Counted from the first letter of the stretch, positions 18,463 through 60,994 are shown. The stretch is 64,000 nt of DNA from Acidimicrobiia bacterium (GCA_033344795.1 JAWPMS010000001.1:2344507-2408506); one strand, 5' to 3'. The notes: a model not told the origin generated them from the sequence alone. Translations and numbers: made by a program.

Positions 18463-18707
18463 CCACCTCACTCGCTGAGCAATTGACAAGCTTCATCCAA
18501 GAAGAGATCGTGCTCGACGACGTCGTGGTGACCGGTGACTTCGATCTGCTGTTGTCGGGAGCAGTGGACAGTCTCGGTGTCATTCGCATCACGCACTGGA
18601 TGGAGGAGACGTTCGGGGTGGTGGTCGATCCTGGTGATGTCACGCTCGACAATTTCCAGACGATCGACAAGATGGCCGCATACCTCGACGCCCGAGCTGC
18701 GGTCTGA
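18459..18707 (+). CDS. stand-alone acyl/peptidyl carrier protein
   Basis: 82 aa with LLSGAVDSLGVIRI (DSL phosphopantetheine site). ATG 18459 overlaps the TGA of the A-domain gene (ATGA coupling). Confidence 0.85.
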   Translation: MTTSLAEQLTSFIQEEIVLDDVVVTGDFDLLLSGAVDSLGVIRITHWMEETFGVVVDPGDVTLDNFQTIDKMAAYLDARAAV

Positions 18708-18712
18708 ATTTC

Positions 18713-42431: not shown

Positions 42432-42848
42432 TTAGACCGCTGAGCGCTCCATTGCCAGATTCTCGATCTGGGCGGCCAAACGTGGGCACTGATCGAGAAC
42501 CGAGTTGAACTCGCGTCGCGTCATGACGAGGATCGAGAGCTCGTCGTGTGCCTCGAGCGATGCGTTCCGGGGTTCGCCGGTGAGAAGAGCGAGCTCGCCG
42601 AGGACGGTGCCTGCTCCGACGGTGACGATGACGGCGTTGTCACGGATGACGTCGGCGGTGCCCTCGAGGACCACCACGGCCTCTTGGCCAACGGCGCCTT
42701 CGGTTGCAAATCGTTGTCCGGCAGCAAGAGTCGCAACGGTTCCCCTGCGGCTGAGGGCGACCATCTCTTGGTCGGTGAATGTATCGGCGAGTGACTGCTT
42801 GATCAGTGGGTGGATCTGGCTGTTGCGGCGTGAGCGAAGGAACGACAT
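42432..42848 (-). CDS. cyclic nucleotide-binding domain protein
   Basis: 138 aa from ATG 42848: ...GQEAVVVLEGTADV...GAGTVLGELALLTGEPRNASLEA (cNMP phosphate-binding cassette). Confidence 0.75.
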   Translation of the reverse strand: MSFLRSRRNSQIHPLIKQSLADTFTDQEMVALSRRGTVATLAAGQRFATEGAVGQEAVVVLEGTADVIRDNAVIVTVGAGTVLGELALLTGEPRNASLEAHDELSILVMTRREFNSVLDQCPRLAAQIENLAMERSAV

Positions 42849-42978
42849 GAGACGCCTCCTGGGCGTTTTGGGGGATGAATTGATCGTACGAATGAACAAC
42901 CCTTTCTTCGGACGATTTGTGCCCGGTGCCGCACGTGTCATTGGGCACCTTGCGTCGACGGTGCAGTACCGTTCGCGG

Positions 42979-45399
42979 ATGGTCGAACGGTATGTCGGAA
43001 GGTCGATGGGGCGTCCGGAGGATCCTTCCTTTCTGCGCGGCATGAGCAGGTACGTCGCCAACCTGAGATCCGAGCGAGATGATGGCCGCACGGGTGCTGC
43101 GCCCTTCGCCCACGTTGCGTTCGTGCGATCGCCGTTCGCCCACGCCCAGATCGTCGACATCGATGTTGCCGAAGCGAAGGTGGCGCCAGGAGTGCTGGCC
43201 GTTGTCACCGCCACAGATCACGACGTTGTGCCACTTGGCGCGTTGGTGGCGGAGAGCGCCACTCCGAGACACGCCATGCCACTGCTCGCAGAAGGGACAG
43301 CGCGGTACGTCGGTGAGCCGGTTGTCGCAGTCGTGGCCGAAACCGAAGCCCAAGCGGTCGACGCCACCGAGCAGGTGATCGTCGATTGGGAACCACTCGA
43401 TGCCGTGATCGACGTGAACGACGCGCTCGAAGACAACGTCGTGTTGTTCACGGCGACGAGTCGTGCTCGCTCGAGGCGGGACGACGATGGGGGGCCGGCG
43501 ACCAACGTCGTGGAAGAACACGAGGCCGGGCACGACGATGGGGGGCCGGCGACCAACGTCGTGGAAGAACACGAGGCCGGGCACGACGAGTCATGCTTCA
43601 GCGGAAGGGTGGACGTGCAGCAACGGTTCTGGAATCCGCGCCAGCTGCCGGCCCCGATCGAGCCATACGTCGAGGTGTGCGGCTGGGATGCGGCCGGACA
43701 CCTTCACGTCCAAACGTCCACCCAGAGACCGCACGGTTTTCGAGACCAGCTCGCGTCGCTCTACGAACTCGACCCGGCCCACGTGCATGTGACGGCGCCG
43801 GCCGTCGGTGGCGGGTTCGGGGGCAAGGTGAGTCGGACGTCAGAGGAGCACGTATTGCCTCTCCTGTCGCGGATCGTGGGGCGTCCTGTCCGATGGGTGC
43901 AGACGCGCAATGAGTACTTCGTCGGTGCCACTCACGGGCGCGGCGAACAGATCGACTTTCGACTCTCCGGGACTGACGATGGGCGGATCATTGCCCTCCG
44001 AGGAGACATGGTGAAGGACAGCGGGGCGTATCCAGGCGTCGGCGCCACGCTTCCGAGTCGATACACGGCGCCCGGTGCCAGTGGGCCCTACGACATTGCC
44101 CATGTCGAGTTCTCGGCTCGTTCGGTCGTGACGAATGCGCCGTCGATTTCTGCGTTTCGCGGCGCCGGACGGGCACCGTACATCGCCGCTCTCGAGCGAC
44201 TGATCGACATGTATGCGGCCCGGATTGGGATGGACCCGGCCGACGTGCGGCGCCGGAACCTGGTCCGTCGAGAACAGATGCCGTTCCTGTCGGTGACCGG
44301 GGCGACCTACGACGAAGCCGACTATGTCGGTGACCTCGATCGTGCGCTCCACGAAGTGGGTTACGACGAGCTGCGTCGCGAACAAGCTAAACGCCGCGAG
44401 AGCGCTGCAGGCTGGCAGCTGGGTATCGGCATGGCCGCCTACCATCACCAGACCGTGGGTGCCGGTGGCTCCGAGGAGGCGAGGGTGGAGATCACCCCTT
44501 CAGGTGGTGCGATGGTGTTCACCGGATCGACCTCGCAGGGCCATGGGCACGACGTGACGTGGGCGCAGATCGCCGCCGACGAACTCGGGATGCCGATCGA
44601 TCAGATCTCTGTGCACGAGGGCTCGACGTCACACACGGCAACCGGGGTTGGTGCGGTCGGCTCTCGTTCGTTGCAAACGGCAGGGGTGGCGATCATGACC
44701 GCGTCGGGGGTGCTCGTGGAGCGCGCACGGCAGGTTGCAGCGCGGCTTCTCGAAGCGGCGCCCGAGGACGTCGTGTGCACAGTCGATGGCGACGGGGGCG
44801 AGCCCGCTGCCCACTTCCACGTGGTAGGCGTTCCTTCCGTCTGGGTCGGCTGGGTCGACGTGGCCGCCGAGGTCGCTCGCTCTGACGCACCCGATGAGTT
44901 GGTGTGTGGCGAGACGCACAACGTGGGCGATCAGACGTCGTTTCCATCGGGAAGCCACGTCGCCGTGGTCGAGGTCGACATCGAGACCGGTTTCGTTCGG
45001 CTCATACGGTTCGTTGGCGTCGACGATGTGGGCAATCGTGTGAACCCGATGGTGGTCGAGGGCCAGCTGCATGGGGGAATTGCGTCGGGTCTCAGCCAGG
45101 TGTTCGGCGAGGAGATGCGCTACGACGGTGACGGCAATCCGTTGACGACGAACTTCGCGGACTATCTGATTGCCACAGCCGACCAACTCCCGATGTTCGA
45201 GCTGCACCCGTCGGTGACGTCGACCTCTTTCAATGCGCTCGGATCCAAGGGTGTGGGTGAATCGGGGACCGTCGGAGCGACTCCCGCCCTGCACAACGCG
45301 GTGATCGATGCGGTCAGCCATCTGGGGGTCGAACACATCGAACTTCCATGTACGCCGATGCGTGTTTGGCAGGCGATCAACGATGCCGGTGCCAAATAG
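42979..45399 (+). CDS. xanthine dehydrogenase/aldehyde oxidase-family molybdopterin-binding large subunit (no adjacent small or medium subunit)
   Basis: From ATG 42979: MVERYVGRSMGRPEDPSFLRG, APAVGGGFGGK, RGAGRAPY, SQGHGH, GESGTVG. The track ORF from 42505 is antisense to the cNMP gene and was trimmed. Confidence 0.85.
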   Translation: MVERYVGRSMGRPEDPSFLRGMSRYVANLRSERDDGRTGAAPFAHVAFVRSPFAHAQIVDIDVAEAKVAPGVLAVVTATDHDVVPLGALVAESATPRHAMPLLAEGTARYVGEPVVAVVAETEAQAVDATEQVIVDWEPLDAVIDVNDALEDNVVLFTATSRARSRRDDDGGPATNVVEEHEAGHDDGGPATNVVEEHEAGHDESCFSGRVDVQQRFWNPRQLPAPIEPYVEVCGWDAAGHLHVQTSTQRPHGFRDQLASLYELDPAHVHVTAPAVGGGFGGKVSRTSEEHVLPLLSRIVGRPVRWVQTRNEYFVGATHGRGEQIDFRLSGTDDGRIIALRGDMVKDSGAYPGVGATLPSRYTAPGASGPYDIAHVEFSARSVVTNAPSISAFRGAGRAPYIAALERLIDMYAARIGMDPADVRRRNLVRREQMPFLSVTGATYDEADYVGDLDRALHEVGYDELRREQAKRRESAAGWQLGIGMAAYHHQTVGAGGSEEARVEITPSGGAMVFTGSTSQGHGHDVTWAQIAADELGMPIDQISVHEGSTSHTATGVGAVGSRSLQTAGVAIMTASGVLVERARQVAARLLEAAPEDVVCTVDGDGGEPAAHFHVVGVPSVWVGWVDVAAEVARSDAPDELVCGETHNVGDQTSFPSGSHVAVVEVDIETGFVRLIRFVGVDDVGNRVNPMVVEGQLHGGIASGLSQVFGEEMRYDGDGNPLTTNFADYLIATADQLPMFELHPSVTSTSFNALGSKGVGESGTVGATPALHNAVIDAVSHLGVEHIELPCTPMRVWQAINDAGAK
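43481..43582 (+). repeat. perfect 51-bp x2 in-frame tandem duplication inside the XDH-family gene
   Basis: 43481-43531 is identical to 43532-43582, followed by a 7-nt partial third copy. Encodes DDGGPATNVVEEHEAGH twice. Confidence 0.95.
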
Positions 45400-45569: not shown

Positions 45570-46796
45570 ATGGCTGATTTCTCGCTAGATCTCAACGAAG
45601 ACCAGATCCAACTCAAGAAGTGGGTGCACGGGTTTGCCGAGGACGTCATGCGTCCCGCGGGCGAAGAGTGGGACGAGCGCGAAGAAACTCCGTGGCCAAT
45701 CATCGAAGAGGCCGCGAAGATCGGACTCTACGGCTGGGAGATCATGGCCGAGACCATGATGAATGACCCCACAGGCTTGTCGTCGATGGTGCTGCTCGAA
45801 GAGCTCTTCTGGGGCGACGCAGGTATTGCGATGTCTCTCATGGGAACTGGCCTCGCCGCCGCAGGTATCGCGGCATCGGGCACACCGGAGCAGGTCATGG
45901 AATGGGTGCCACAGATGTATGGCACCCCCGATGACATCAAGCTCGGTGCCTTCTGCTCGTCTGAGCCAGACGCCGGATCCGACGTTTCGGCGATCCGCAC
46001 CAACGCGAAGTACGACGAAGCCAAAGACGAGTGGACAATCAACGGCACCAAGACGTGGATCACCAACGGTGGCATCGCCGATGTGCATGTGGTTGTCGCC
46101 GTCGTCGACTCTGACCTCGGGACGAAGGGCCACGCGAGTTTCATCGTGCCCGCAGAAGCCAAACTCGACGGCTCACTTCGTCAAGGGCAGAAGTTCAAGA
46201 AGCACGGCATCCGGGCCAGCCACACCGCTGAGGTGATTCTCGAAGACGTCAAGGTTCCCGGCGCATTTCTCCTCGGAGGCAAAGAGCGCATGGACGAAAA
46301 GCACGCTCGCCTCCGCGAAGGCGGCGGTGGTGCGGTCAGCAATTCGGCGATGAAGACGTTCGAGTCGACCCGGCCAGCCGTTGGCGCCCAGGCCGTGGGC
46401 ATTGCTCGTGCGGCCTACGAGTACGCGCTCGAGTACGCGAAGGAGCGCGTGCAGTTCGGTCGGCCGATCATTCAGAACCAGTCGATCGCCTTCATGCTCG
46501 CCGACATGATCACCGAGATCGATGCGTCACGGTTGCTCGTGCACCGCGCAGCATGGCTGGCAAAGAACGGCGAGTTCGTGAACGCCGAAGGTTCGATGGC
46601 CAAGCTCAAGGCCGGCCGCACCGCCACCTGGGTGACCGAGCGCGCCATCCAGATTCTGGGCGGCTATGGCTACATCCGCGAGTTCCCGGTCGAGCGCTTC
46701 CATCGCGACGCCAAGATCCACGACATCTTCGAAGGCACCGAGCAGATCCAGCAGCTGGTCATCAGTCGAGCCATCTCGGGCATGCGCATCGAGTAG
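45570..46796 (+). CDS. acyl-CoA dehydrogenase
   Basis: 408 aa. GAFCSSEPDAGSD, WITNGG, canonical C-terminal IFEGTEQIQQLVISR with catalytic Glu. Confidence 0.9.
   Translation: MADFSLDLNEDQIQLKKWVHGFAEDVMRPAGEEWDEREETPWPIIEEAAKIGLYGWEIMAETMMNDPTGLSSMVLLEELFWGDAGIAMSLMGTGLAAAGIAASGTPEQVMEWVPQMYGTPDDIKLGAFCSSEPDAGSDVSAIRTNAKYDEAKDEWTINGTKTWITNGGIADVHVVVAVVDSDLGTKGHASFIVPAEAKLDGSLRQGQKFKKHGIRASHTAEVILEDVKVPGAFLLGGKERMDEKHARLREGGGGAVSNSAMKTFESTRPAVGAQAVGIARAAYEYALEYAKERVQFGRPIIQNQSIAFMLADMITEIDASRLLVHRAAWLAKNGEFVNAEGSMAKLKAGRTATWVTERAIQILGGYGYIREFPVERFHRDAKIHDIFEGTEQIQQLVISRAISGMRIE
46718..46796 (+). repeat. 79-bp direct repeat, copy A (last 26 codons plus stop of ACAD); candidate attL
   Basis: Matches 50224-50302 at 77/79 positions. 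The two differences (46765 T/C, 46768 A/G) are synonymous in the ACAD frame. Confidence 0.9.
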
Positions 46797-46945
46797 CTAG
46801 AAGGTCATCAAATTCAACGAATTTGCCACCGAAGCGCTGAGGCTCGCACCTCGCAACAGGTTCGTGCTCGCTCGGCTCGAAAACGCATTTGTCCCTAGTT
46901 TGTCCCTAGTTAGACGCCTTCGTTGCCGAAGGCAGAAACTCATCG

Positions 46946-48055
46946 GTGGATGTGATGGCGTCGGCGTACGGAGAATTCACGTCGCCGCCTGCGCTCCCAC
47001 AGACCCGGTCTAGGGAAATGCTCGTCGCGACACCCACTGGTTACCTCGAAGCCGAACCAGACTCTGACGTTTTCACGACGCAGGGATTCGACTTCTCAGA
47101 CGAGCTTTCGACGCCCACTGACCCCAACTCTCCGGAAACACCACACCTGGGCAGAGTGGGAGAATGGAGGCTCGTGGCGTTTCCAGACCAATACGTACTC
47201 CACAGACAGTCGACCGACGAGCGCCTAGTCTTCTCATATCCTGATGAATTCGAGCCCGATCAGAACAACAGACATAGAACCTCTGATTTCATTGGCGTCG
47301 ACGGGACACTGCGTTTCGCCGTCCGCGTTCAACGCCCCTCACCTACCACTACAGGCCGCGACCGCCATGTGATGGTGCTCCAAAAGGTACCCGGAGGAGT
47401 ATGGACCGCTTCAGTTTCGGATCGCTTGGTTCGGGAAGGCACGGACGCTGCTGTCAGCAGTCATAGCGATCTAAGTCTAAGTGCGGAAGGTTTGTTCCCG
47501 GCCCCAGCAGGGTTCGGCGGGAACGTACAATTCGCGTCCTTCGAATCAGACGGATCGATCGGAGAGTGGGCACGCCTAGATGGAACACTCGGTTCTGACT
47601 ACCAGCTCATTGTCACCGATGGCGATAATGGCACCGAAGGCCGCTTCTATTTCGCGATCCCCGGTGTCCCGAACCTTGCCGATTCCATCGAGGTCTTCCG
47701 ACCTGATGGCACGCGGTCTGGCACGATAGCCCAGCCGACAGCGGCCACTGGCGAGATCAATGGGGCCTTCGCTCTAAGGCCTGACTTCGACGGCATCGTC
47801 ACGCTCGCGATTACCTACACCAGCGGTGAGATCTGGATGGCGACCACGCAGGCAGGAGCCGGATTCGACGGCGCCGTGTTCGACTTGGTCGGCGTGATCG
47901 ACCGCCCAGTCCGGCCCGTCCGGGTCGACTATTCCTACAGTGGGGTGTGGCTCTATCGGCTTGACGGCAATCATCTCGAGGCCTTCCGCATCGGGCTTTC
48001 ACCTAGGGGAGATGACCTTGTCACGGCTGACCGACGGTTTCGACGCCTGGTGTGA
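46946..48055 (+). CDS. hypothetical protein (islet cargo)
   Basis: 369-aa ORF with no recognised motif. Its 3' end overlaps the SMI1/KNR4 gene start by 44 nt. Confidence 0.45.
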   Translation: MDVMASAYGEFTSPPALPQTRSREMLVATPTGYLEAEPDSDVFTTQGFDFSDELSTPTDPNSPETPHLGRVGEWRLVAFPDQYVLHRQSTDERLVFSYPDEFEPDQNNRHRTSDFIGVDGTLRFAVRVQRPSPTTTGRDRHVMVLQKVPGGVWTASVSDRLVREGTDAAVSSHSDLSLSAEGLFPAPAGFGGNVQFASFESDGSIGEWARLDGTLGSDYQLIVTDGDNGTEGRFYFAIPGVPNLADSIEVFRPDGTRSGTIAQPTAATGEINGAFALRPDFDGIVTLAITYTSGEIWMATTQAGAGFDGAVFDLVGVIDRPVRPVRVDYSYSGVWLYRLDGNHLEAFRIGLSPRGDDLVTADRRFRRLV

Positions 48056-48653
48056 GATTCTCGCGGCGAACGGGCATGCGCTTGAGTTGCTGGACGGCGC
48101 GCCCGAGGAAGAGATAGTTGGTGCTGAGCGGCAGGTCGGGTTCACCTTTGCGCCCGAGGTTCGTGAGCTCTATGCCCACAGCAACGGACTGACGGTTCCG
48201 GGCGTCGGCTTGTTGTTCCTGCCTCCTTCGATGTCTTTTCTGCAGCTCGAGAACGGTCATTCATATCGTTCTTCGTTCAAGAATGCCCCCGAACTTGCTT
48301 CGGAGGACCTGCAGAATCCGGGTGTCCGCGGTCCGGGCGGCGTGCCTCTCGAGGTCCTGGCCGTTTTTTGGGGTGGTGAGGGCACTGTTGCCGTTGAGTG
48401 TTCTGAGCATGCGCAGGGTGCGGTGATGTTTCTCAACGATGACGCCCGGTTCTTCTGGGTGGCGCGGAGTTTGACGGAGTTATTTGAGCGGTACGTCGAT
48501 GCCTATGAGAAGGGCATCATTGAGTGGGATGACATGGGCTATCCGGCTGTCAGGCGTCGGTATGAGTCGAAGATGGTCGAGTACACGAGCGACGAGCCTC
48601 CACGTGGTAGCTGCAGTGTCTGGCATTGGGACGACTGGGCCACAGGTCACTGA
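48012..48653 (+). CDS. SMI1/KNR4 (SUKH-1) family protein (immunity-protein-like)
   Basis: From ATG 48012 (AGGGGAG SD): LELLDGAPEEEIVGAERQVGFTFAPEVRELYAHSNG...LTELFERYV pattern typical of SMI1_KNR4. Confidence 0.65.
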   Translation: MTLSRLTDGFDAWCEILAANGHALELLDGAPEEEIVGAERQVGFTFAPEVRELYAHSNGLTVPGVGLLFLPPSMSFLQLENGHSYRSSFKNAPELASEDLQNPGVRGPGGVPLEVLAVFWGGEGTVAVECSEHAQGAVMFLNDDARFFWVARSLTELFERYVDAYEKGIIEWDDMGYPAVRRRYESKMVEYTSDEPPRGSCSVWHWDDWATGH

Positions 48654-48798
48654 CTGTCGAATCGTTCACGTCGCCAACGTCGGAGAACTCTTCAAGGACA
48701 GCGAACGCTTGGTGAGGAGTTGGCGAGTCTGAGCTGAGACCCTGATTCTGGTCCACCTGGACCGGACAACGGGTCCCTCTCAAGTCAGCCAGGTTGTG

Positions 48799-49812
48799 TC
48801 AGTCGGTAGTGTCTCGTTCGGCGACGAACGGCCCGAGTTGTTCCCATATCTCGATGAGGCAGTAAGAGTAGGGGACGACTTCGGAGTGTTCGAACAGGTC
48901 AGCGGGATCGCCTGTGAGATCACCGAACGTCGGGTTCAGTTCAGCGCGCCCATCACCATTGGTCTCGAAGATCGCGTTTACGAAGACGGCGGTCTCCATT
49001 TGCGGCTCGTTGGGGGCGAGCCAAGAGGAGATCAGCCATGCGCCTGCGTCAACATCTCCGGTCTCGCGGATCCTGACGAACTCAGAGGAGAGAACGTTCA
49101 CGTCATCGATGTCGTGCTCGATGAGTGGCCTGGCTGCGCTGACCGTGCCGGTGGCTGCGAGGGGTGTCGTGCCATAGCCGGGATGGACCTCTGGGTTGTT
49201 GTGCCAGAAAGGTTCGTACTGCTGCATCAGGCTGCCCCAGTGAGTGACCGATGCCTCGATGTTGTTGCCGCAATCATAGCTGTAGTGCACGACGGGGAAA
49301 CCCTCAGCGGCAAGTCCGTATGCGACGCTTGTGTTGTCGGCGACGATTGTGTCAGCGCTCGGTACGTATCCCTCGTCCCAGATCCCGACGTACTCGAAGC
49401 CTTCGAGATCCTCGAAGAAACGAATTGGTTCCGCGGGCGGATCGTACTGCGGGCGTTGACGCTCGGGCGGAAGTTCAAACGTGTGGGCCTCAATTCGGAT
49501 GTCTTCGAGCTCTGACGAAGGCGCTACAGGGTCAGCGAGCCTTTCGGATGTGGCGTCTTGCTGGTCGAGATGTTTCGGCTCGGCGGCAGACATGGCTTGT
49601 GGGTCTGCTGTGCCCTGTTCGGTTTGGGGCGGGAGCGCTTCACTCCCGGGGTTGGCCGAGTTTGTTGTCGGGCTGGCGAATGGAGCAGCCACTGGAGTCG
49701 GATTTTGATCCGACGCCACGACCGAAGAAGAGGTATCCGAGGTACACGCCGCGCTCATAAGCGAACTCACTGATATCGCTGCAACTATGACATAGCGTTT
49801 TCGAGGACCCAC
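48799..49812 (-). CDS. hypothetical lipoprotein (islet cargo)
   Basis: RKRYVIVAAISVSSLMSAAC lipoprotein signal if started at GTG 49812; the track start is 49944. Ser/Pro-rich linker. No recognised domain. Confidence 0.5.
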   Translation of the reverse strand: MGPRKRYVIVAAISVSSLMSAACTSDTSSSVVASDQNPTPVAAPFASPTTNSANPGSEALPPQTEQGTADPQAMSAAEPKHLDQQDATSERLADPVAPSSELEDIRIEAHTFELPPERQRPQYDPPAEPIRFFEDLEGFEYVGIWDEGYVPSADTIVADNTSVAYGLAAEGFPVVHYSYDCGNNIEASVTHWGSLMQQYEPFWHNNPEVHPGYGTTPLAATGTVSAARPLIEHDIDDVNVLSSEFVRIRETGDVDAGAWLISSWLAPNEPQMETAVFVNAIFETNGDGRAELNPTFGDLTGDPADLFEHSEVVPYSYCLIEIWEQLGPFVAERDTTD

Positions 49813-50223
49813 TTCCCGTTTATCGTCGTCCAACGACCTTGCCTGAAGGATCAAGTTGTGTTCGGTGTGCCAGTACCGGCATTCACTCTTCCCGTCGTTG
49901 TTCTGGGAGGCGCTTCTCAGATCGGAGGTGCACAGGAGGTGCACGGCACCCGCCGACAGCGGCCGGCTTCAGCCGGACACAACAGGACTGCCTGGACAAG
50001 AATCCTTGAGGACTCAGGACCTGCCGACACGACATCGCATTGGCTGGACAATTCAGGCGAGACTTAAACACCGCTTCTCTTCTGTGGCGAGCCGAGTGTC
50101 CCTAGTTTTGTCCCTAGTAACCGGTCATGCGGGACGTGACAGAACATTCCGAGATGGACGGAAACGTTGAAAACACAGCACTCAACGACACCCGGCGATA
50201 CCAGCTAGACAGGTCAGAAGGAC

Positions 50224-50302
50224 CCACGACATCTTCGAAGGCACCGAGCAGATCCAGCAGCTGGTCATCAGCCGGGCCATCTCGGGCATGCGCATCGAGT
50301 AG
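50224..50302 (+). repeat. 79-bp direct repeat, copy B (orphan copy of ACAD 3' end); candidate attR
   Basis: See copy A. No ACAD-like sequence precedes it. Confidence 0.9.
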
Positions 50303-50320
50303 AGCTGAGCAGGCGTGACC

Positions 50321-51085
50321 TCAGTTGGCGGCTTCGGGGCGGGCGAAGCCGACGAGCTCGATCAGCCGGTCGGTGTCACAACCCGCAGCGTCGGACGACC
50401 CGGCGGTGAGGACGGTGTCGAGGATCGTGGCGATGGCTGCCGTGACGGCGTCTTCGCGAGCTCGCGCCTCTTCGAGCAGGATCGGGAATTCGCCGTCGTC
50501 GGCGTCGAGTGTGGCCGCGAGGCGAGCCCGCGCGTCGGAGTCGAATTGCACCCGATCATCGTCGATCGACTCGAGCCCCGAGAAGGCGTCGTCGACCAGG
50601 ACGAGCAGGTCCGGCTGCGAAGTCGGACTGAACGACCAGTTCTCGATTCCGCGCCACTGATCCACGCCGTCGACGAGCGCAGTGAACTCCGTTGGGCAGA
50701 ACGTCACGAGCGCAGGCACGAGCGCAGGCGCGGGTGCCGGATCGTCGGCCGTGTCGACCGCCTCTTGTGCCGACTGGAACTGCGTCAGGCCGATGGCGAC
50801 AACGGCGATCAGCGCCGCTGCGGCGGCGAGTAGCCGAACGATGGGCCGGTTGCCTGCTCGCTGATCAATGTCTGGTTGCAGCTCGATGACGGGGGCCGCG
50901 AAATCGTCGATCGCGTCGGGTGGGCCGATCACGGGGGGGACCTCCGCCAACTCATCACTCGTGGCCGGGCTAGACGCCTCCGCCGGGAGGCCGAGTCGCG
51001 CCCGTACCCGATCGCGCTCGTCGGCCCGCAGCGCACGTGGGCGGTCGGCGTCGCTCAGCAGCTCGCTGAGCTCGTGGTCATCCAT
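50321..51085 (-). CDS. anti-sigma factor-like membrane protein
   Basis: From ATG 51085 (overlaps the sigma gene stop by 8 nt): short cytoplasmic N-terminus, one TM (IVRLLAAAAALIAVVAIGL), extracytoplasmic domain. Confidence 0.55.
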   Translation of the reverse strand: MDDHELSELLSDADRPRALRADERDRVRARLGLPAEASSPATSDELAEVPPVIGPPDAIDDFAAPVIELQPDIDQRAGNRPIVRLLAAAAALIAVVAIGLTQFQSAQEAVDTADDPAPAPALVPALVTFCPTEFTALVDGVDQWRGIENWSFSPTSQPDLLVLVDDAFSGLESIDDDRVQFDSDARARLAATLDADDGEFPILLEEARAREDAVTAAIATILDTVLTAGSSDAAGCDTDRLIELVGFARPEAAN

Positions 51086-51605
51086 CGTGCTCTCCAGCTT
51101 CGTTTCGGTTGCTGTCGTATGCCGTACGGAAGGCCTGCTTGGCCCGGCCGAGCAGCGACTCCGTGGCCTTGTAGGACGACCCGAGTGCTTCAGCCACCTC
51201 ACTCGTGGAGAAGCCGTCGACGTAGCGCAGCACCAACGCAGCACGCTGCCGGTCGCTCAGTGACGCCAGCGCCTCCTCGACGGCACCATCAGGGTCGGTT
51301 TCTGGTGCCGCCGGCTCGCTACTGAACTCCCGCTGCAGTCGGTCGAACCGCCGTTGTTGGCGCGACGACGTCCTCCAGTGGTCCACGAGCCGACGACGAG
51401 CGACCGTCGTCAGCCACCCGCCGCTGACCTCCGCAGCCCGACCTTCGGCGCAGAGTTTCCCCGCAGCCAAGAACGTCTCGGTGAGGAGGTCCTCGGCCAC
51501 GGCGCGGCTCCCACAGCGATGCAGCAGGAAACCGAAGACGCGCTCGGACTCTTGCTCGAAGATCGCTCCGAGGAGTGCAGTAGGGTCCGCGACAATCACC
51601 TCCAT
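51078..51605 (-). CDS. ECF-type RNA polymerase sigma-70 family factor
   Basis: 175 aa from ATG 51605. Region 2 (FGFLLHRCGSRAVAEDLLTETF..RLVDHWR) and region 4 (LSDRQRAALVLRYVDGFSTSEVAEALGSSYKATESLLGRAK). Confidence 0.85.
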   Translation of the reverse strand: MEVIVADPTALLGAIFEQESERVFGFLLHRCGSRAVAEDLLTETFLAAGKLCAEGRAAEVSGGWLTTVARRRLVDHWRTSSRQQRRFDRLQREFSSEPAAPETDPDGAVEEALASLSDRQRAALVLRYVDGFSTSEVAEALGSSYKATESLLGRAKQAFRTAYDSNRNEAGEHDG

Positions 51606-51710
51606 GCCCTTCTGTCGCTCGGCACGGCCCGAATCCCTCGCGAGCGTCGGTTCCGAAGTCGCTCGATTATCGCGCGAGGGATTTGGCGGCGCCGGAGCGA
51701 TACCGGTTCC

Positions 51711-53135
51711 ATGGAACGCACACCGATGTCTCGAATCCACCGATCCTTTGCCCTCGCCGTGGGCCTAGCGCTGGCCGTCCTGGCCAGTGCATGTTCGTCC
51801 GACTCGCCCGACGCGCAAGCCGAGGTGCAAGCCGTCGAATCGACAACGACCACCGCGGCACCAACCACGACTGTGGCGTCGACGACAACCGGAGCGCCCG
51901 CGCCTCCCGAACCGGTGGCGCTCACCGGCACGGCAGTCGAGTCCCTCCTGGTGGACCTGCCGAGCGAGGACGGCTGGCTGTTGCCCGCCGGGTCATGGAC
52001 GTCAGACGTGTTCTCCGTGGGCGTGGAGTGGACGTCTCCAGTCGACATGTACCTCGAACAGGCGGCCGCCCACTTCGTGCAGCTCCGGCCGGTCGACGGC
52101 GGTTCGCCTATATGGGTTTTTGAGCCGTTCGAGCTCGCAGGTCCGCAGGGCTGGTTCGCCATACCCCGGCCATTCGACCTGGCGATTTTTGCGGCCAACC
52201 CGGAAATCGAGATGCACAGCCAGACGTCGGACGGTCCGGCTTCGGCGGACTTCACGGTGGTCGGCGAGCGGGTCGGATCGGGCACTCCGTGTCCGTACGA
52301 TGCCGAGCTCTCGTGCACCGCAGGCTTCGGGACGAGGGCATGGGTGGTCAGCCCCCCGCTGGACGTCCAAAGCCGGCTCGTCACCGCGGACCCCGACCTC
52401 CCGATGGTCGTCGCAACCTACGGTGATTCGAGCGGCCCCGGGGCGAACGCCGCGCTTGCCGTCGAGATCGCAACAAGCATCCGGACCGGAGAGGTCGAAA
52501 AGCCAGCCACCACATTCGTCTCCGCCGTGAACTCGCAATCGGGCGAGCTCCCTGCCGGCGTGCTTCGAGGCCGACTCGGACAAGATGCGGTGATCGAGTT
52601 CGCATTCGACGAGCCGGCCGCAAACTGGAGCCGACGGTGGTCGTATTACCGCACGATCGACCTCTTGACGTCCTCGGGACCACAGGCCTCGGCCAGCATC
52701 TTTGCGTTGACAGGCGCGATCGACCCCGAGGCTGAGCAGCAGTTCGGCACCGAAGGCGTCCTGGCAGAACCTCCGCAAGGCGTCGACGAGGTTGAAGCCT
52801 GGCTCGGGAAGCTCGTGGCCATCGTCGACTCTGGCGAAGCGACCTTCGGCAACGCGCCTGCAGCGTGGTGGGACGTCACCGTCGACGACACCGTGGACAG
52901 CTCGCCGTGCCAAGTCGCACATTTGCAGGGCCCGGACGCCTTGTGCGTCGACTACCGCTGGGACGAGCGCTGGTTTTCGATCCCAAGCGGCACGATAACG
53001 CGGATGTACTACGTGCCCGGTCCTGAGGTGTTGCTCTATCTCGAAGCGGGATCGGATTCGACCCTGGACGACGCGCTCGCGGCGGCAGCACCGCTACTCG
53101 ACAACCTCGCCATCTCGGCGGTCGCCGACGGCTAG
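51711..53135 (+). CDS. hypothetical lipoprotein
   Basis: MSRIHRSFALAVGLALAVLASAC lipoprotein signal (start 51711 or 51726), Thr-rich linker. The track ORF from 51354 is antisense to the sigma gene and was trimmed. Confidence 0.6.
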   Translation: MERTPMSRIHRSFALAVGLALAVLASACSSDSPDAQAEVQAVESTTTTAAPTTTVASTTTGAPAPPEPVALTGTAVESLLVDLPSEDGWLLPAGSWTSDVFSVGVEWTSPVDMYLEQAAAHFVQLRPVDGGSPIWVFEPFELAGPQGWFAIPRPFDLAIFAANPEIEMHSQTSDGPASADFTVVGERVGSGTPCPYDAELSCTAGFGTRAWVVSPPLDVQSRLVTADPDLPMVVATYGDSSGPGANAALAVEIATSIRTGEVEKPATTFVSAVNSQSGELPAGVLRGRLGQDAVIEFAFDEPAANWSRRWSYYRTIDLLTSSGPQASASIFALTGAIDPEAEQQFGTEGVLAEPPQGVDEVEAWLGKLVAIVDSGEATFGNAPAAWWDVTVDDTVDSSPCQVAHLQGPDALCVDYRWDERWFSIPSGTITRMYYVPGPEVLLYLEAGSDSTLDDALAAAAPLLDNLAISAVADG

Positions 53136-53156
53136 GTGTTGTAGCTGGGTTGGTTA

Positions 53157-53219
53157 TTCGCAACGCTGCTTCCAGGCGATCGATCGGTTGCCGTTGTCGG
53201 TGAGGATCCGTTCGATCTG
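53157..53219 (-). mobile_element. possible remnant (21 codons) of an IS481/IS3-type DDE transposase
   Basis: Reads QIERILTDNGNRSIAWKQRCE-stop, which resembles the (V/I)LTDNGS.YRS..W stretch of rve-domain transposases. Too short to be sure. Confidence 0.25.
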
Positions 53220-53226
53220 ACAGTGG

Positions 53227-53370
53227 CTAGGTAGTCCCCGACTGGTCAACCACGTCCGAAGCAGATGAGGCATCCGTCGGGTTCCGACCCGGCGGATGCC
53301 CAAGCGCCTGCAGCCCGCGTGCGAGGTCGCGCGGGCGGTGGCTTCCCACAGGGACTGGCCTTCGGACACG
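53227..53370 (-). pseudogene. orphan, frameshifted copy of the 3' end of the HD-domain gene at 56702-57403
   Basis: 53225-53307 matches 56700-56782 at 80/83, including a 63-nt perfect run. Weaker similarity continues to about 53365. Translates ...ALGHPPGRNPTDASSASDVVDQSGTT against ...ALGHPPGRNPTDASSASDVVDEPRTT. Confidence 0.6.
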
Positions 53371-53437
53371 TGTAGTTCGGGTGGGCCGCGGCGGCTTCCC
53401 AGAGGGTTCCAGCAGCAAGTGTGAGCAATAGCTGAAT

Positions 53438-54628
53438 CTACAGTTCGATTCGCTCTGCGCGGAGCTGCTCGAGTTCGGGTGGATCGGGAAAGTCAAGCAC
53501 TCTGACCCGAGCGGGGTAGTGGTTGGTCGGTTCTAACCGATGGCCACAGATCTCCTCGACTGCCTTCCAGGGGACCAAAAACACAGGGATCTCGGGGTTC
53601 TGGAAGAACGCAACGATGTCCGTGCGGGGAAGCAGCGTGTCAACGTCCTCAGACCAGGTGCACATGGAGAAGATCTCTCCGTTGGAAGTCTGCTTTGCTG
53701 AGTACGTTGCCACGAAGAGTTCATCGTCGAGGTGCGTATTGAGCACTGCCTGTTGAGTCGCGTAGCCGCTTGCGAGGTCGACAACGATCAGTTTGTGCAC
53801 GGCCTCGAACGCTGGGTGTGTGTAGGAAAGCTCGAGCGGACGCCAGTTGTCCGTGTCGCCGATGATTGGTGTGAGGCTCACCGGGTCCGCTTCATCTTTG
53901 AGGCTGAGAGCGAGCTCCGCAGCGATTCGAAGTCCCTCGGAGTTGCCGGCGTCTGCAACCAGACACCGTCGTCGCGTCGGCTGAAAGACGACCTTCTCTC
54001 CCGAGATGGGAAGGCCGTCGAGTGCGCCTGGCAGGAGCAATCTGGCGCCTGCGTAGTCATCTTCACCGACTGGCACGAATAGCAGATCGCCCACGCATTC
54101 CCACGCCTGGACCGAGTCGGCGGCAAGGTTGTCTTTGCCGATCTGAAGTAGCTCTTCGAATGAGCGGCCGTTTTCAGCAACTTGATCGGTGGTGGCGATC
54201 TGCATTGTCGTCGGCGAGTCCGCAATCAGACACCACACGAGATCGGCGGCGATGGGAGCTGTTGGCATCGTTGAGCTTGTTGGCAACCCACCTTCTTGGC
54301 CGCCTTGAAGACTGATGGTTTCCAGCGTCGCCCGAGAACGCACGCCTGCTCGAAGTTGCGCCAAGTGGAGCTGGGGCGGCGTGTTTGCATCACGGTATAT
54401 GCCCTGGAGCACGCCATCGAGCCACGGCTCCCGGTCCGCAGGTTCGTGTTCGTGCCACTTGAGCCGAAGGTTGTGGAGATAGGCGATGTGGTCACCGATG
54501 TTCAGTGTGTCGCCGGGGCCGTCGACGATGGCCGCATCTTTCGGCGCATGCCGTCGCGACAGTTCGCGGACCGCTTGATCGAAGTCCGACATGTCGATCT
54601 CTGCGATCTTCTTCTTGAAAAATGCCAT
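53438..54628 (-). CDS. hypothetical protein
   Basis: Start taken at MAFFKKKIAEID (ATG 54628), 396 aa. No recognised motif. Confidence 0.5.
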   Translation of the reverse strand: MAFFKKKIAEIDMSDFDQAVRELSRRHAPKDAAIVDGPGDTLNIGDHIAYLHNLRLKWHEHEPADREPWLDGVLQGIYRDANTPPQLHLAQLRAGVRSRATLETISLQGGQEGGLPTSSTMPTAPIAADLVWCLIADSPTTMQIATTDQVAENGRSFEELLQIGKDNLAADSVQAWECVGDLLFVPVGEDDYAGARLLLPGALDGLPISGEKVVFQPTRRRCLVADAGNSEGLRIAAELALSLKDEADPVSLTPIIGDTDNWRPLELSYTHPAFEAVHKLIVVDLASGYATQQAVLNTHLDDELFVATYSAKQTSNGEIFSMCTWSEDVDTLLPRTDIVAFFQNPEIPVFLVPWKAVEEICGHRLEPTNHYPARVRVLDFPDPPELEQLRAERIEL

Positions 54629-54665
54629 CGCCTCATATCGACGGACGAACAGCGAGGGTTGAGAC

Positions 54666-55628
54666 CTACGTGAGCGGTCGAATCTCCGAACCGTCGTGGG
54701 AGATTTCGATTCGGTCAAAATCGTTGGCGAGGTGAAGCCCTCCTCGGAAGTGCTGTCGGGCCTCGTCGCGAACGTCGCTGATCGTCAGACCATCGCCGTG
54801 ACTTGTGTAGCGCGGGCTGAAGTGAGTGAGAACCAAATTGCGGACGCCGTTCGCCTGTGCGGCGGCTGCGACCCGCTCTGCGGTGCTGTGGCCGCGGTCG
54901 TCGCCGAGTGTTGCGAGCACCGGTTCTGTGTACGTCGCTTCATGCACAGCGACATCGGCGCCCGCCGTCGTTTCGAATAGTGCCGCTGGTGCGGCATTGT
55001 CCCCAGAGATCACGATCCGTCTACCCGGCCGCGACGGCCCCGTGACCCTGTCGGGCTTCACTGTCTGGCCGTTGGTCAGCTCGACGGACTCGCCGCGTTG
55101 GAGTTGTGCGAACATCGGTCCTTCGGGCACTCCGGCTGCGCGTGCTGCCTCGACGTTGAACTGACCGGGCCGATCTCCTTCACGCACCGACCAAGCGAGG
55201 CTCGTCACCCGGTGGGTGAGGGGTACGGCGTCGACGGTTATTGCTGCGTCGTCGATGACTCGTCCGCCGTCGGGGCTGACCTCGTGGATCTCCATTGGGT
55301 AGGCGAGGTGGGTGCTCGAAGCGGTGAGGACAGTCTCGAGCATTGCTTTCAGGCCAGGTGGTCCGTAGATCGTAAGCGGAGCGATCGTTCCGTCCATCGA
55401 TCGTGAACCAAGGAGGCCGAACAACCCGAAGCAGTGATCGCCGTGCAGGTGGCTGATGAAGATTCGCCGGAGCTTTGACAGTGAGAGCGAGGTCTTGAGC
55501 AGTTGGTGCTGGGTGGCTTCGCCACAGTCGAACAGATCCCAGTGTCCGTCGATTCGAAGTGCGAGGCCAGTGACGTTTCGCTCCATGGTGGGTGTACCCG
55601 AGGACGTACCGAGAAAGGTCAACTCCAT
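54666..55628 (-). CDS. rnz: ribonuclease Z (tRNA 3' endonuclease, MBL fold)
   Basis: MELTFLGTSSGTPT..RNVT..LFDCGEATQHQLL...ISHLHGDHCFGLFGLLGSRS...HEAT...LTHFSPRY. Collinear with B. subtilis RNase Z as I recall it. Confidence 0.85.
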   Translation of the reverse strand: MELTFLGTSSGTPTMERNVTGLALRIDGHWDLFDCGEATQHQLLKTSLSLSKLRRIFISHLHGDHCFGLFGLLGSRSMDGTIAPLTIYGPPGLKAMLETVLTASSTHLAYPMEIHEVSPDGGRVIDDAAITVDAVPLTHRVTSLAWSVREGDRPGQFNVEAARAAGVPEGPMFAQLQRGESVELTNGQTVKPDRVTGPSRPGRRIVISGDNAAPAALFETTAGADVAVHEATYTEPVLATLGDDRGHSTAERVAAAAQANGVRNLVLTHFSPRYTSHGDGLTISDVRDEARQHFRGGLHLANDFDRIEISHDGSEIRPLT

Positions 55629-55753
55629 CGCGCATGCTTAGCACGAGGCTGTTCTCGGCAGCCTTCTCCCAGTTACATCTTGACGGCACCGAGCAGCTCC
55701 GGCAGCTCGTGATCAGCGGGGCGACTGATCGCGCGCTGTGTCATGTCTGAGTG

Positions 55754-55779
55754 CTGAAACGGTGCAGAAACGGTCAGAC
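55754..55779 (+). promoter_or_regulatory. 11-bp-phased direct repeat CTGAAACGGTGCAGAAACGGTCAGAC (candidate SARP box), copy 1
   Basis: Shares AACGGTGCAGAAACGGTC (18/18) and 23/26 overall with 61041-61066. Lies about 75-95 nt upstream of the CAP-like gene start. Confidence 0.5.
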
Positions 55780-57772: not shown

Positions 57773-60700
57773 TCAGACCGAACGGAGTGCGGCTAACTCG
57801 ATGCTCGCAGGGTGATCCTCGAGATAGCAGCGACGCAATTCAGGATCGGTGATCGAACGGGCAGTCGCGGTTTGAATCGATTGTGCTGTCGCGATTGCAT
57901 CGACCGCCCTCGAACCATCAGCTGCATGGAACGCAGCAGCGAGGTCCAGGTGCGTCGCGACCGGCCAAGGAAGTGCCGGCGCGTCGGGCGCCGCGAGCTC
58001 GACCATGACCTCGTCGGCCAGTGCGGCGGCGCTTTCGAGTTCGCCCAAGATGGCAGCTGACCGGGCGATCAGGGCCTTGCCGGTGAGCGCGAAGTGAGAC
58101 GCCTCGCGGTCGGCCGCGATCTCGACCAGTTCCTCTGCGGCGACGATCGCTTGTTCATGTCGTCCTCGGTCCTGGAGGTGACGCACCCACGGCGGCAGGT
58201 TGTACAAGAGGCCGTAGGTGAACTTCTGCGACCGGGTCAGGGCAATGCCCTCCACGAAATCGCGTTCGCCTTCCTCATGGCGCCCCAAGCCCACGAGGCA
58301 TTCGGCGTGTTGTGCCAATGCGTAACCCTCGACCTGCAAGTCACCCGTGGAGCGAAACAGGTCGAGAGCCGTTGCGGTGTGGCGGCGCGCCCTCTCGTAG
58401 TCACCAAGGAGGACCAGCGAGGCACCCACATTGATGTGCAGCGAAGCAAGCCGCTGCCGATTGCCAATTTTCTCTGTGAGAGACATCGCAGTCGAATCGG
58501 CCACATACGCTTCCCAAACTTTGTTCTGTTCGGCGTAGGTCGGGGCGAGATAGCTGTGGGTCAACGCCTGGGCGCGTACATCGTTGGCATGTTCGAACAG
58601 TTCCAACGCTTGCCGGTACACGGCTATGGCGTCGTCGAAGCTGCCGGTCGCTGACAGCAAGCGACCTCGCTGCAACAACGACCAAGCGCGTAGCTCGGGT
58701 TCGTCCAGATCATCGAGTTGGCTTTCGGTCGCCTCGAGCATCACTGACGCTCGGGTCAGGTCACCGTCGTAGAACGCCGACTGTGCTCGGTGCAGGTTCG
58801 CCCATGCTCGGTCTGCGTCGCGCGCCGGGGCTTCGGCCAACAGTTCGTCGATGCGATCACAAAGTTCATCGACGACCGCATCCTGACTGTCGACGGCGAG
58901 AAGGCGTGCGGTGATACGACGAAAGAACGCCTCGTCGTGGTCACCGTCCGGATCGAGACGACGCTCACGAATGGCGTCCGCCGCGTCGGAGGTCAGACCC
59001 GGCGCTTCGACGACGCGGCCAGCGAGCTCGAACAGGTACCCGACACCCATTGCCGCCGAGCCGAGCTCGGAGGTGAGGCCGTGTGCGAGCGCGTACCGCC
59101 ACGCCGCTCGGACGTTGTCGAGATCGCGCACGAGCCCGTCGCTCACGGTTGGCGCCTCGCCCGAGATCAGTGTCGCTTCGGCCTCGGCGACACGGCCGAG
59201 GAACCAACGCGCGTGGGCCGTTTCGGCCGCGACGCGATCGTCGAGGCGAGCTGCCGCCGACTGCCGGAGGAGTTCGTGAAACCGAAACCTGCGGCCGCCC
59301 TCTTCGACAAGCAGTGATTTGCGTGCGAGTCGGCTTGCTTCGTGGCCACTCGAGCCGATCAAGGCATGCGCAGCCTCGCTGTCGAACCCGTCGCGGGTCA
59401 CGCTTAGGTGAGCGAGCGCGCGTTGTTCGTCGGGCTCGAGTGTGGCCCACGAGTGCTCGAACACGGCGTCGAAGGTTCGGTGCCGGTCCGGGGCGTCGCG
59501 CAGCGCCTCACCAGGCAGGTCGATCTCGCTGTGGAGCATGGCGTTCAGGTCGCCAACGCTCAACGGTCCGATGCGCGCCGCCGTGAGCTCCAGGTGCAGC
59601 GGGATCCCCTCCAATAGGCGGCACAAGCGCCCGACCTCGTCGGGATCCTCGGCTGCCAGCGAGAACGTCTTGTCGACTCGATACGCGCGGTCGGCGAAAA
59701 GCCTCACGGCCGGTGATTCGGCAATGTCAGAAGCGCCAGGTTCTGGGGTCTCCAAACCGCAGAGAACGAAAAGATCTTCGCTGCTCACTTCGAGGGGCTC
59801 TCGCGACGTCGTAAGGAGTCGTAGCCCAGAACAGCCTTGAAGCAGGGCCACGACCGTGTCGCGTGCGTCATCTACGAGGTGCTCGAAGTTGTCGAGCACG
59901 AGGCACATGCGTTTGTCGCCGATCAGTTCGATCACGCGATCTCGGGGTTCGGCCGCGCTTTGGACCGCATCGGGAGCGATGGCGTCGAATACCGCCGACA
60001 ACATTTCGGCCTCGGAGGCGACCGATGCGAGTGAAAGGAAGAACACGCCGGCGGGGTGAGCTTCGACACTTGCCCTCGCAGCCTCGGCTGCGAGGCGAGT
60101 CTTGCCGACACCGCCCGGGCCCACGATCGTCATCAGGCGGTAGTCGCCACGCTTCAGTCGTTCGCCCAACAAGCTCAGCTCGAGTTCTCGACCGAAGAAC
60201 GGCGTCAGGTCGGTGGGAATGCCGACGGTTCTCGTCGTCTCCTCAGCGGGTGTTTGCGTCGTGCCGGCGACGATCTGATCGAGCACCGCAGTTGTGTCGG
60301 GTGAGGGTGTGAGGCCGAGCTCGTTCCAAAGAACGCTGGCGCACACCTCGTACTGCGCGTGGGCTGCAGCCGGTCCACTGATCGATGCCATCGCGATCAT
60401 CAGGTGTTGGTGCGCTACCTCGTGCCACGGTTCGATCTCGAGGATGCGCTGGGCGCAGTCGCGACACCGGGTGAGATCGTCAGCGCTTAGCGAGTCAGCG
60501 CTCGCCTTCGTCAACGCCTGCAACGCGGTCGCCTGGAGGTTCTGACGACGGGCGGCCGCCCAGTCCTCGAACAGTTCCGCTCCCTCGATGGTGAGAGCGT
60601 TGAGGAAGTCTCCTAGGTACCGATCCAACACGGCGTCGGCTTGTTCATCTGAGGCTGCGTCGTCGATCGTCGAGGCGTCGTAGTCCACCGATGTCGAGAT

Positions 60701-60994
60701 CCACACACGGTCACGATCGGCGCCGATGTGGTTGCCGGCCACCGCTCGGAGTCGCGTGAGCGCAACGCGAAGGTTGGCACGAGCGCGTTCGTCCGGCATA
60801 TCCGACCAGAGCAGGCCTGCTAAGACTCCCCGGCGAACGGGTCCGCCCGCGTCCGCCAGGTACACGAGCAACAGTGCGGCCTTGTCAGGTATCCGCGCAT
60901 CGACGCGTTGACCATCGATCGCAATTCGAAGATCGCCGAGGGCTGACACCCGAAGAGGCGTCGTCCTCGTTTGCTCTTGTTCCCCCGCACCCAC
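57773..60994 (-). CDS. SARP/AfsR-type transcriptional regulator (winged-helix + BTAD + NB-ARC P-loop + TPR)
   Basis: 1073 aa. N-terminal LRVSALGDLRIAIDG...ANLRVALTRLR, BTAD LDRYLGDFL, Walker A GPGGVGKTRLA, long C-terminal TPR-like repeats. Confidence 0.85.
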   Translation of the reverse strand: MGAGEQEQTRTTPLRVSALGDLRIAIDGQRVDARIPDKAALLLVYLADAGGPVRRGVLAGLLWSDMPDERARANLRVALTRLRAVAGNHIGADRDRVWISTSVDYDASTIDDAASDEQADAVLDRYLGDFLNALTIEGAELFEDWAAARRQNLQATALQALTKASADSLSADDLTRCRDCAQRILEIEPWHEVAHQHLMIAMASISGPAAAHAQYEVCASVLWNELGLTPSPDTTAVLDQIVAGTTQTPAEETTRTVGIPTDLTPFFGRELELSLLGERLKRGDYRLMTIVGPGGVGKTRLAAEAARASVEAHPAGVFFLSLASVASEAEMLSAVFDAIAPDAVQSAAEPRDRVIELIGDKRMCLVLDNFEHLVDDARDTVVALLQGCSGLRLLTTSREPLEVSSEDLFVLCGLETPEPGASDIAESPAVRLFADRAYRVDKTFSLAAEDPDEVGRLCRLLEGIPLHLELTAARIGPLSVGDLNAMLHSEIDLPGEALRDAPDRHRTFDAVFEHSWATLEPDEQRALAHLSVTRDGFDSEAAHALIGSSGHEASRLARKSLLVEEGGRRFRFHELLRQSAAARLDDRVAAETAHARWFLGRVAEAEATLISGEAPTVSDGLVRDLDNVRAAWRYALAHGLTSELGSAAMGVGYLFELAGRVVEAPGLTSDAADAIRERRLDPDGDHDEAFFRRITARLLAVDSQDAVVDELCDRIDELLAEAPARDADRAWANLHRAQSAFYDGDLTRASVMLEATESQLDDLDEPELRAWSLLQRGRLLSATGSFDDAIAVYRQALELFEHANDVRAQALTHSYLAPTYAEQNKVWEAYVADSTAMSLTEKIGNRQRLASLHINVGASLVLLGDYERARRHTATALDLFRSTGDLQVEGYALAQHAECLVGLGRHEEGERDFVEGIALTRSQKFTYGLLYNLPPWVRHLQDRGRHEQAIVAAEELVEIAADREASHFALTGKALIARSAAILGELESAAALADEVMVELAAPDAPALPWPVATHLDLAAAFHAADGSRAVDAIATAQSIQTATARSITDPELRRCYLEDHPASIELAALRSV

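Follow-up and report, generated by a model that had tools for sequence, protein, structure and literature searches.

Duplicated gene ends and paired predicted arm-type repeats delimit an integrase-less islet behind an acyl-CoA dehydrogenase gene of Acidimicrobiia

Introduction

A class of elements that keep flanking attachment (att) sites after losing their integration genes has been described under the name cis-mobilizable elements (CIMEs; PMC5704250). Among them are derivatives of elements of the ICESt1/ICESt3 type, located at the fda 3′ end in Streptococcus thermophilus (Pavlovic et al. 2004 and Bellanger et al. 2011, cited in PMC5704250). Here we analyze a comparable locus in a 64,000-nucleotide stretch of an Acidimicrobiia metagenome-assembled genome (MAG; GCA_033344795.1, JAWPMS010000001.1:2344507-2408506), which we call the window and in which positions are counted from its first nucleotide. 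An interval of 3.4 kb that contains three orphan genes and no recombinase lies there between two copies of the end of an acyl-CoA dehydrogenase (ACAD) gene. Very probably, this islet is non-autonomous and CIME-like and stems from one of a family of small integrative elements that use the ACAD tail.

As in CIMEs, attL/attR direct repeats bound the islet at a housekeeping gene's 3′ end, genes for integration or excision are missing, and the islet occupies a site that is used by related autonomous elements and that shows tandem accretion. Unlike the described CIMEs, it resides in an Acidimicrobiia host, at a different target gene and with a different integrase family. Its parent elements are small (3-8 kb), carry int and a xis-like gene, and show no conjugation genes in those that were inspected; cis-mobilization of the islet is itself only a prediction.

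Integrases devoted to a single protein-coding gene have been described for dusA, where they belong to prophages and genomic islands (PMC4482086), and SGI1-type islands lie at the 3′ end of trmE (PMC8409611). The ACAD elements resemble the dusA-specific and trmE/SGI1 integrases in that one clade is tied to one conserved protein gene whose end is restored, and they differ in having the 3′ end of an acyl-CoA dehydrogenase gene as their target. We found no description of integration into an ACAD gene 3′ end in the open-access literature, which is weak evidence of novelty. The only ACAD-related attB found was a serine-integrase site in fadE of Mycobacterium abscessus, where integration disrupts the gene (PMC9934374).

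At the ACAD site, successive cargo modules, many of them without an integrase, lie between repeated 3′ parts of the target gene. This arrangement is like that of the tycheposons and additive flexible genomic islands of marine bacteria, in which tandem degraded modules are separated by partial target genes; unlike the ACAD site, most of those arrays are found at tRNA genes, and their integrases belong to other families. Short direct repeats are also present in both arms, ~100 nt from the core, as in systems with heterobivalent tyrosine integrases that use arm-type sites, such as lambda Int, mycobacteriophage L5 Int, and Tn916 Int. In contrast to these three, the repeat consensus NTCCCTAN is specific to the ACAD family, and the arm sites here are predicted from sequence. 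One set of repeats directly precedes the int start and could there permit autoregulation; in the KplE1 prophage, attL overlaps the int promoter (PMC2951348).

A tyrosine integrase, a target at a gene 3′ end, arm sites, an excisionase-like partner, and tandem accretion make up a classical and known mechanism. What is apparently undescribed is an integrase family of at least 516 protein clusters that is dedicated to the ACAD 3′ end in Acidimicrobiia and related Actinomycetota. In a group that is abundant in the environment and has seldom been cultured, the site forms a hotspot of variation between strains, and its defined att architecture would allow islands to be delimited automatically in MAGs and would reveal integrase-less modules that island finders miss. 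It could possibly also provide a site-specific integration tool for Acidimicrobiia.

Duplicated ACAD tails and arm repeats of the islet

The target gene (45570..46796, + strand) encodes an ACAD of 408 aa with Pfam Acyl-CoA_dh_N, _M, and _1 domains, and the protein is an exact match to NCBI MDW3177968.1 from an Acidimicrobiia MAG. The gene is full length and intact, and its last codons now border element DNA. A repeat search showed that the last 82 nt of the gene, including the stop codon (46715-46796), are repeated at 50221-50302 with 79/82 identity. The first of these, copy A (46715..46796, + strand; nhmmer E 2e-28), is the functional ACAD end and the putative attL core, and the second, copy B (50221..50302, + strand; nhmmer E 1.5e-24), is the putative attR core; they are the only two full tail copies in the window. 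They share an identical 47-nt block, which occurs exactly twice in the 64 kb and in none of 100 shuffles. A first-pass annotation of this DNA had reported a 79-bp direct repeat with 77/79 identity, which is the same repeat minus its first three bases. It was also right that both internal differences are synonymous in the ACAD frame (AGT/AGC, Ser; CGA/CGG, Arg) and that nothing ACAD-like precedes copy B, as tblastn matches the last 27 ACAD residues only.

The left edge of copy B, GGACCCACGAC, is an element-type junction that is common to L087 and L091 (such labels denote related loci in reference genomes and in metagenomic and viral contigs), while the right part of the copy corresponds to a displaced native tail. 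The junction reads AGGACCCACGAC both in the window and in the integrase clade nearest to it. Copy B shares 97.6% identity with the native tail of L177, which among relatives without an integrase beside ACAD is the closest, and has the codons of most relatives (AGC CGG), whereas copy A has AGT CGA; this distribution fits a gene end supplied by the element. Combined with the element-type left edge of copy B, it would also fit an exchange whose crossover point lies in the left, conserved half of the core and through which the element gives the gene its new end. Because only two differences separate the copies, this direction of exchange is supportive and not decisive.

The ACAD 3′ end is also where third-position conservation peaks, with values of 0.70-0.71 over the last ~40 codons (46677-46796 and 79 loci) versus 0.50-0.65 elsewhere, a level matched by only 14 of 382 sliding windows across the orthologues. 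Identity of the tail to that of the window is 90-96% at the nucleotide level across the class. Such high synonymous-site conservation would fit either constraint on an att core or homogenization by it. No non-coding RNA or tRNA was found at the insertion site.

Just inside both islet ends are two tandem pairs of TGTCCCTAGT in the same orientation, a feature that the first-pass annotation had missed. All four copies are perfect 10-mers and are the only exact matches in the window. The left pair (46890-46910, 11-nt period) is located in the P′ arm (46797..46945, + strand) and starts 94 nt past the stop codon of copy A, and the right pair (50097-50118, 12-nt period) is located in the P arm (50090..50220, + strand) and ends 102 nt before copy B. 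The distance from the right pair to the core motif is 114 nt in the window versus 113 nt in both L087 and L091. The window P arm (50090-50182) aligns over 95 nt with its counterpart in the integrase-bearing element of L091 at 85% identity (E 2.6e-23), an element whose host is distant (ACAD ~76% identical). The P′ pair is identical to the pairs of L001 and L176, and the same pair is found just upstream of int in L001, L002, L029, L087, L091, and L176. By blastn, the P′ arm matches that of L001 at 86% over 37 nt, and the alignment of the window with L176 continues from ACAD across the stop codon to 46911, where the pair ends.

The tandem TGTCCCTAGT motif is also present in an iteron-like form in four unrelated IMG/VR viral contigs (L081-L084), three of which are AT-rich around the match, with several copies in both orientations in L083. 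The likeness between these viral arrays and the Acidimicrobiia elements is probably a matter of convergence or chance.

An integrase family at the ACAD 3′ end

In a reference set of 80 species-representative genomes with an ACAD orthologue, six carry a tyrosine integrase of ~365 aa (PF00589, E 1e-16 to 1e-20) right after the ACAD stop codon: L001 and L002, which are the nearest two, and L029, L035, L056, and L064. The int gene starts ~45-140 nt past the stop on the same strand, and a later tblastn pass located full-length family integrases in L050 and L078 as well. Relatives closer than L001 and L002 were reached through the ACAD protein cluster (L173-L176, with 95.8% ACAD identity for L176), and their gene order is ACAD, int, a small open reading frame (ORF), an HTH_17 excisionase-like gene, and cargo. 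Among the related loci, 31 contain an HTH_17 gene of the family. ACAD without an adjoining integrase is seen in L167-L172 and L177.

A metagenome scan using a profile of the six integrases returned 80 loci, 72 of which have at least 120 nt of upstream sequence. The ACAD tail is 43-156 nt upstream of int in 65 of these 72, and a tandem pair lies at most 90 nt from the int start in 56 of them. By profile search of a protein database the family comprises the at least 516 clusters mentioned above, which the source names only ‘integrase’ or ‘site-specific integrase’, and its members keep the catalytic R...HxxR...H...Y signature. In viral contigs, the family integrase gives two distant matches only, at 22% identity. 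The presence of a dedicated integrase family directly past the ACAD stop in relatives identifies the ACAD 3′ end as a genuine attB. A second ACAD paralogue in the window (15427-16644, − strand) has a tail with 38% protein identity to that of the targeted ACAD, and this tail is not duplicated; the integrase family therefore discriminates between ACAD paralogues.

Complete integrase-bearing elements of 3.4-8 kb, each closed by a second, truncated ACAD tail, were found in L087, L091, L097, L110, L119, L122, and L164. The truncated tail begins 77-83 nt before the stop in every one of them and in three of four integrase-less segments, and at 88 nt in the integrase-less segment of L079. A tandem NTCCCTAN pair is immediately upstream of the int start in every integrase-bearing element read, and a second pair is 101-113 nt upstream of the right-hand tail core motif in all five elements read at that end (L087, L091, L097, L110, and L119). 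The predicted attP of the family accordingly has a core of ~80 nt, with a tandem NTCCCTAN pair ~100 nt away on either side. We infer that these pairs are arm-type sites of a heterobivalent integrase, and the pair beside int may in addition have a role in autoregulation. Repeat variants correspond in part to integrase clades, with the GTCCCTAG type found in the clade of the window's nearest relatives. In one clade (L002, L087, and L091), three direct repeats of (T)CACCTCC are located between the ACAD stop and the NTCCCTAG pair (for example, L091 9900-9950). Xis or a host factor may bind these repeats, which are not recognizable in the P′ arm of the window.

The cargo of the integrase-bearing elements is variable: among other things, L056 carries type I restriction-modification genes, L176 an HNH nuclease paired with an AAA_15/21 ATPase, and L087 an extracytoplasmic function (ECF) sigma factor. 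In L029, universal stress proteins and a Na+/H+ exchanger are downstream of int, with the right end beyond the available sequence. As the downstream flank differs in every relative, no ancestral B′ flank can be defined.

Decay and accretion are both evident among these loci. Across 171 loci there are six non-redundant complete integrase-bearing segments versus four integrase-less segments. L087 contains a second tandem element (17898-18917) with its own arm pair and an int that is frameshifted and truncated, L097 (7642-11224) has an integrase-less module of 3.4 kb with its own P arm behind an integrase-bearing element, and L091 has two attR-type tails 15 nt apart (14454-14643). In the integrase-less inter-tail segments of L025, L061, and L079, the arm repeats are eroded (L025) or absent. 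The L061 islet also includes an ORF that by eye resembles a cytochrome P450, is convergent with ACAD, and has its 276-nt 3′ end duplicated (3395-3670 and 6825-7100, 93%), which suggests a second, nested insertion targeting the end of that gene.

Gene content of the islet

Three genes lie between the repeats, as the first-pass annotation had described. The first, ORF369 (46946..48055, + strand), is an orphan of 369 aa located at the position that int holds in the family. A search of 5.8 billion proteins gave no homologue of it, Pfam, NCBIfam, and PADLOC gave no match, and its GC content by codon position (0.64/0.50/0.64) amounts to a weak coding signal. Its prediction as an all-beta protein is of very low confidence, and an AlphaFold2 single-sequence model is unusable (pLDDT 32). 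Within the 5′ end of ORF369, a 21-nt segment (46954..46974, + strand; ATGGCGTCGGCGTACGGAGAA) that covers a start codon and the first seven codons is a possible relic of int. It aligns locally with the int starts of L091, L002, and L087 with scores of 23-25, which are reached by 1-5 of 500 shuffles, and no such resemblance was found against L001 or L029. This hints that int may have been deleted or replaced downstream of its first codons, with ORF369 now starting at the int position. A tblastn search with the family integrases found no longer relic, and we rejected the idea that ORF369 is itself a decayed or novel recombinase, as it has no likeness to the family integrases past the first codons.

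The second gene (48015..48653, + strand) overlaps the end of ORF369 by 41 nt and encodes a SMI1/KNR4 (SUKH-1) protein of 212 aa (PF09346, 28.8 bits versus a gathering threshold of 25.4, E 2.1e-6). Its sole database match is itself (P0018), under the NCBI name SMI1/KNR4 family protein. The third gene (48799..49767, − strand) is an orphan that possibly encodes a lipoprotein; from an upstream start, the product reads ...VSSLMSAAC followed by a Ser/Thr/Pro-rich linker. Its sole real database match is again itself (MDW3177971.1), of which NCBI annotates the last 264 aa only. PADLOC and NCBIfam gave no matches for the cargo. The SUKH domain, which scores above threshold, suggests that the protein is the immunity component of a polymorphic toxin system, and no toxin or trafficking domain was detected in ORF369, the overlapping upstream neighbor. 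From its position, ORF369 could be the toxin, and since no such domain is detectable this stays a guess.

In composition, the islet (GC 0.57-0.62) is below its right flank (0.66-0.68) and not below its left flank (0.58-0.63), so that the dip is modest; the first pass had pointed to clearly lower GC in some stretches. Third-codon-position GC is 0.64-0.68 for the three islet ORFs versus 0.72-0.79 for neighboring genes. A scan of the islet for promoters and terminators yielded nothing exceeding shuffle expectation.

None of the three islet ORFs matches a recombinase, relaxase, coupling-protein, or replication family in Pfam, NCBIfam, or PADLOC. The same is true of recombinases throughout the 64-kb window, in which the best tblastn match with the family integrases has an E of 0.03, the best match with the family HTH_17 genes has an E of 0.55 and yields no Xis, and Pfam scans of gene-like ORFs detected neither PF00589 nor any other recombinase. 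We also considered a transposon or insertion sequence and rejected it, as no transposase was found, none of the inverted repeats identified is terminal, and the duplication is 82 nt long and gene-specific.

Origin of the islet

Taken together, these features lead us to favor the CIME-like explanation. The attL and attR cores and both arm pairs of the islet are intact, its arms are homologous to the arms of integrase-bearing elements, and genes for integration, excision, and transfer were not found. The earlier reading of the repeats as attL and attR now has the support of an integrase family at the site, a shared left boundary of copy B, and arm repeats with the spacing of the family. We hold the structural part of the explanation with high confidence.

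In the mechanism that we propose, a tyrosine integrase of the heterobivalent type inserts small elements into the last ~80 nt of ACAD. As comparison of the loci shows, the attP of these elements carries its own copy of the ACAD tail between NTCCCTAN pairs. Recombination in the conserved left half of the tail keeps ACAD intact with an element-derived end, in the order attL, P′ arm, and int, and the native tail moves to the far end of the element, where the P arm is followed by attR. The copy in the window has the attL core, P′ pair, P pair, and attR core in the geometry of the family. Its int and xis are absent; the orphan ORF starts at the place expected for the int start, and the SUKH gene and the putative lipoprotein gene follow. 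Such an islet would be immobile alone and yet a competent substrate for the Int and Xis of a related element, acting either in trans or through tandem cis-mobilization. Its competence is favored by the perfect arm repeats, by cores that are 96% identical, and by a P arm that is shared with the element of a distant host.

Several observations weigh against this explanation. Outside the repeats, the P′ arm has little similarity to that of most family members, and the stretch at the ORF369 start that may derive from int is short and only marginally significant. Arm binding by Int is deduced from the repeats, and the Pfam match to Arm-DNA-bind_4 is sub-threshold (E 0.17). No close helper is evident, as the source contig is absent among the best 120 of the at least 516 family clusters. 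The comparison includes no genome of the same species, with the closest ACAD at ~85-87% DNA identity, and it shows neither an empty site nor an excised circle; exact-protein look-ups of ACAD, ORF369, and the lipoprotein likewise gave no further contigs.

Of the alternatives, the one that fares best is that the islet is an evolved integrase-less satellite, with arms under selection and with movement dependent on the Int and Xis of autonomous members, though we consider it improbable. A satellite would be expected to have arm repeats as well preserved as the four perfect 10-mers and cores as similar as those seen here, including the 47-nt identical block, and the conservation of the P arm over 95 nt with an element of a distant host (ACAD ~76%) points in the same direction, as does the finding that inter-tail segments without an integrase occur about as often as complete ones that carry it. 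However, a spreading satellite should be found in several genomes, and this cargo is unique to the source genome. A cognate integrase is lacking both in the window and, from the source contig, among the best 120 clusters of the family; the arms of the other integrase-less islets (L025, L061, and L079) are eroded or absent, as decay predicts; and intact arms are equally explained by a recent insertion. A wider version, in which integrase-less islets are maintained as cargo-only satellites shuttled between Acidimicrobiia and the last ~25 codons of ACAD are themselves mobile DNA that is homogenized class-wide, seems to us just as doubtful.

Far less probable is entry by a RecA-dependent route, either through Campbell-type integration of a circle carrying an ACAD tail or through an illegitimate duplication of the tail. 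The tail is unusually conserved (90-96%), with the highest third-position conservation in the gene, and could support homologous exchange, and an islet without an integrase would be compatible with such an origin. Nevertheless, the duplicated segment starts within a few nucleotides of the same place in independent elements with and without int, family-specific arm repeats are found at fixed distances on both sides, and a dedicated integrase family occupies the site in most sampled loci. Homologous recombination predicts none of the fixed boundary, the arm repeats, and the integrase family, and it therefore does not explain the islet.

An assembly artefact, in which strains were chimerically joined at the repeated tail, is hardly credible. 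The source is indeed a MAG, and the contigs of several relatives end within a few kb past ACAD, which suggests population-level variability at the site. A chimera is nevertheless unlikely: the source contig spans 4,866,565 bp, independent assemblies show the same succession of tail, arm pair, cargo, arm pair, and tail, and the sequences at both junctions are of the element type that a real attL and attR should have.

Under the CIME-like explanation, the loss of the integrase is a common fate of such elements and an instance of ordinary island decay. The first-pass annotation had correctly stated that the islet encodes no recombinase, which the tblastn and Pfam searches extend to the whole window. 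It overstated the case in calling this absence unusual, given that CIMEs are a described class (PMC5704250) and that four more integrase-less segments are present among the 171 loci.

Older insertions and other features of the window

A third, decayed copy of the tail, copy C (55675..55724, + strand), had also escaped the first-pass annotation. It has a 1-nt deletion and ~84% identity, and it is supported by nhmmer (E 1.7e-7), by tblastn (E 0.01), and by blastn, in which 49 nt match the L177 tail at 84%. An older islet (50303..55674) separates copies B and C and has no arm repeats and no int. Its genes encode an anti-sigma-like ORF, an ECF sigma factor, orphans of 593 aa and 426 aa, and a hydrolase with a metallo-beta-lactamase fold, and none of these genes is located downstream of ACAD in relatives. 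The ACAD gene is, on this evidence, trailed by two successive inserts, a younger one at 46797-50220 and an older one at 50303-55674. A decayed third copy 5.4 kb further on implies that the site took up at least two elements in succession, in agreement with tandem accretion.

Directly past copy C, at the start of an orphan ORF of 314 aa, is an 11-nt tandem repeat, GTGC(A/T)GAAACG (2.6 copies, 55751-55778). It could represent arm-type repeats of a different, older element, or it could be due to chance. The variable region downstream of the islets also encodes a STAND-type regulator of 1073 aa with BTAD, NB-ARC/AAA, and TPR domains (57773-60994, − strand).

Two further features are located upstream of ACAD. 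In the N-terminal part of a xanthine-dehydrogenase-like ORF (42505-45399), a 51-nt unit is present 2.4 times in tandem with 97% matches (43472-43589), a duplication that repeats the peptide ...DDGGPATNVVEEHEAGH... in the product. A nonribosomal peptide synthetase (NRPS) cluster (16480-26692, + strand) comprises a stand-alone adenylation enzyme, a carrier protein, and an NRPS of 2659 aa (C-A-T...A-T-TE). Residues ~930-1037 of this NRPS match the PP-loop ATPase families QueC and ThiI, which makes for an unusual embedded domain.

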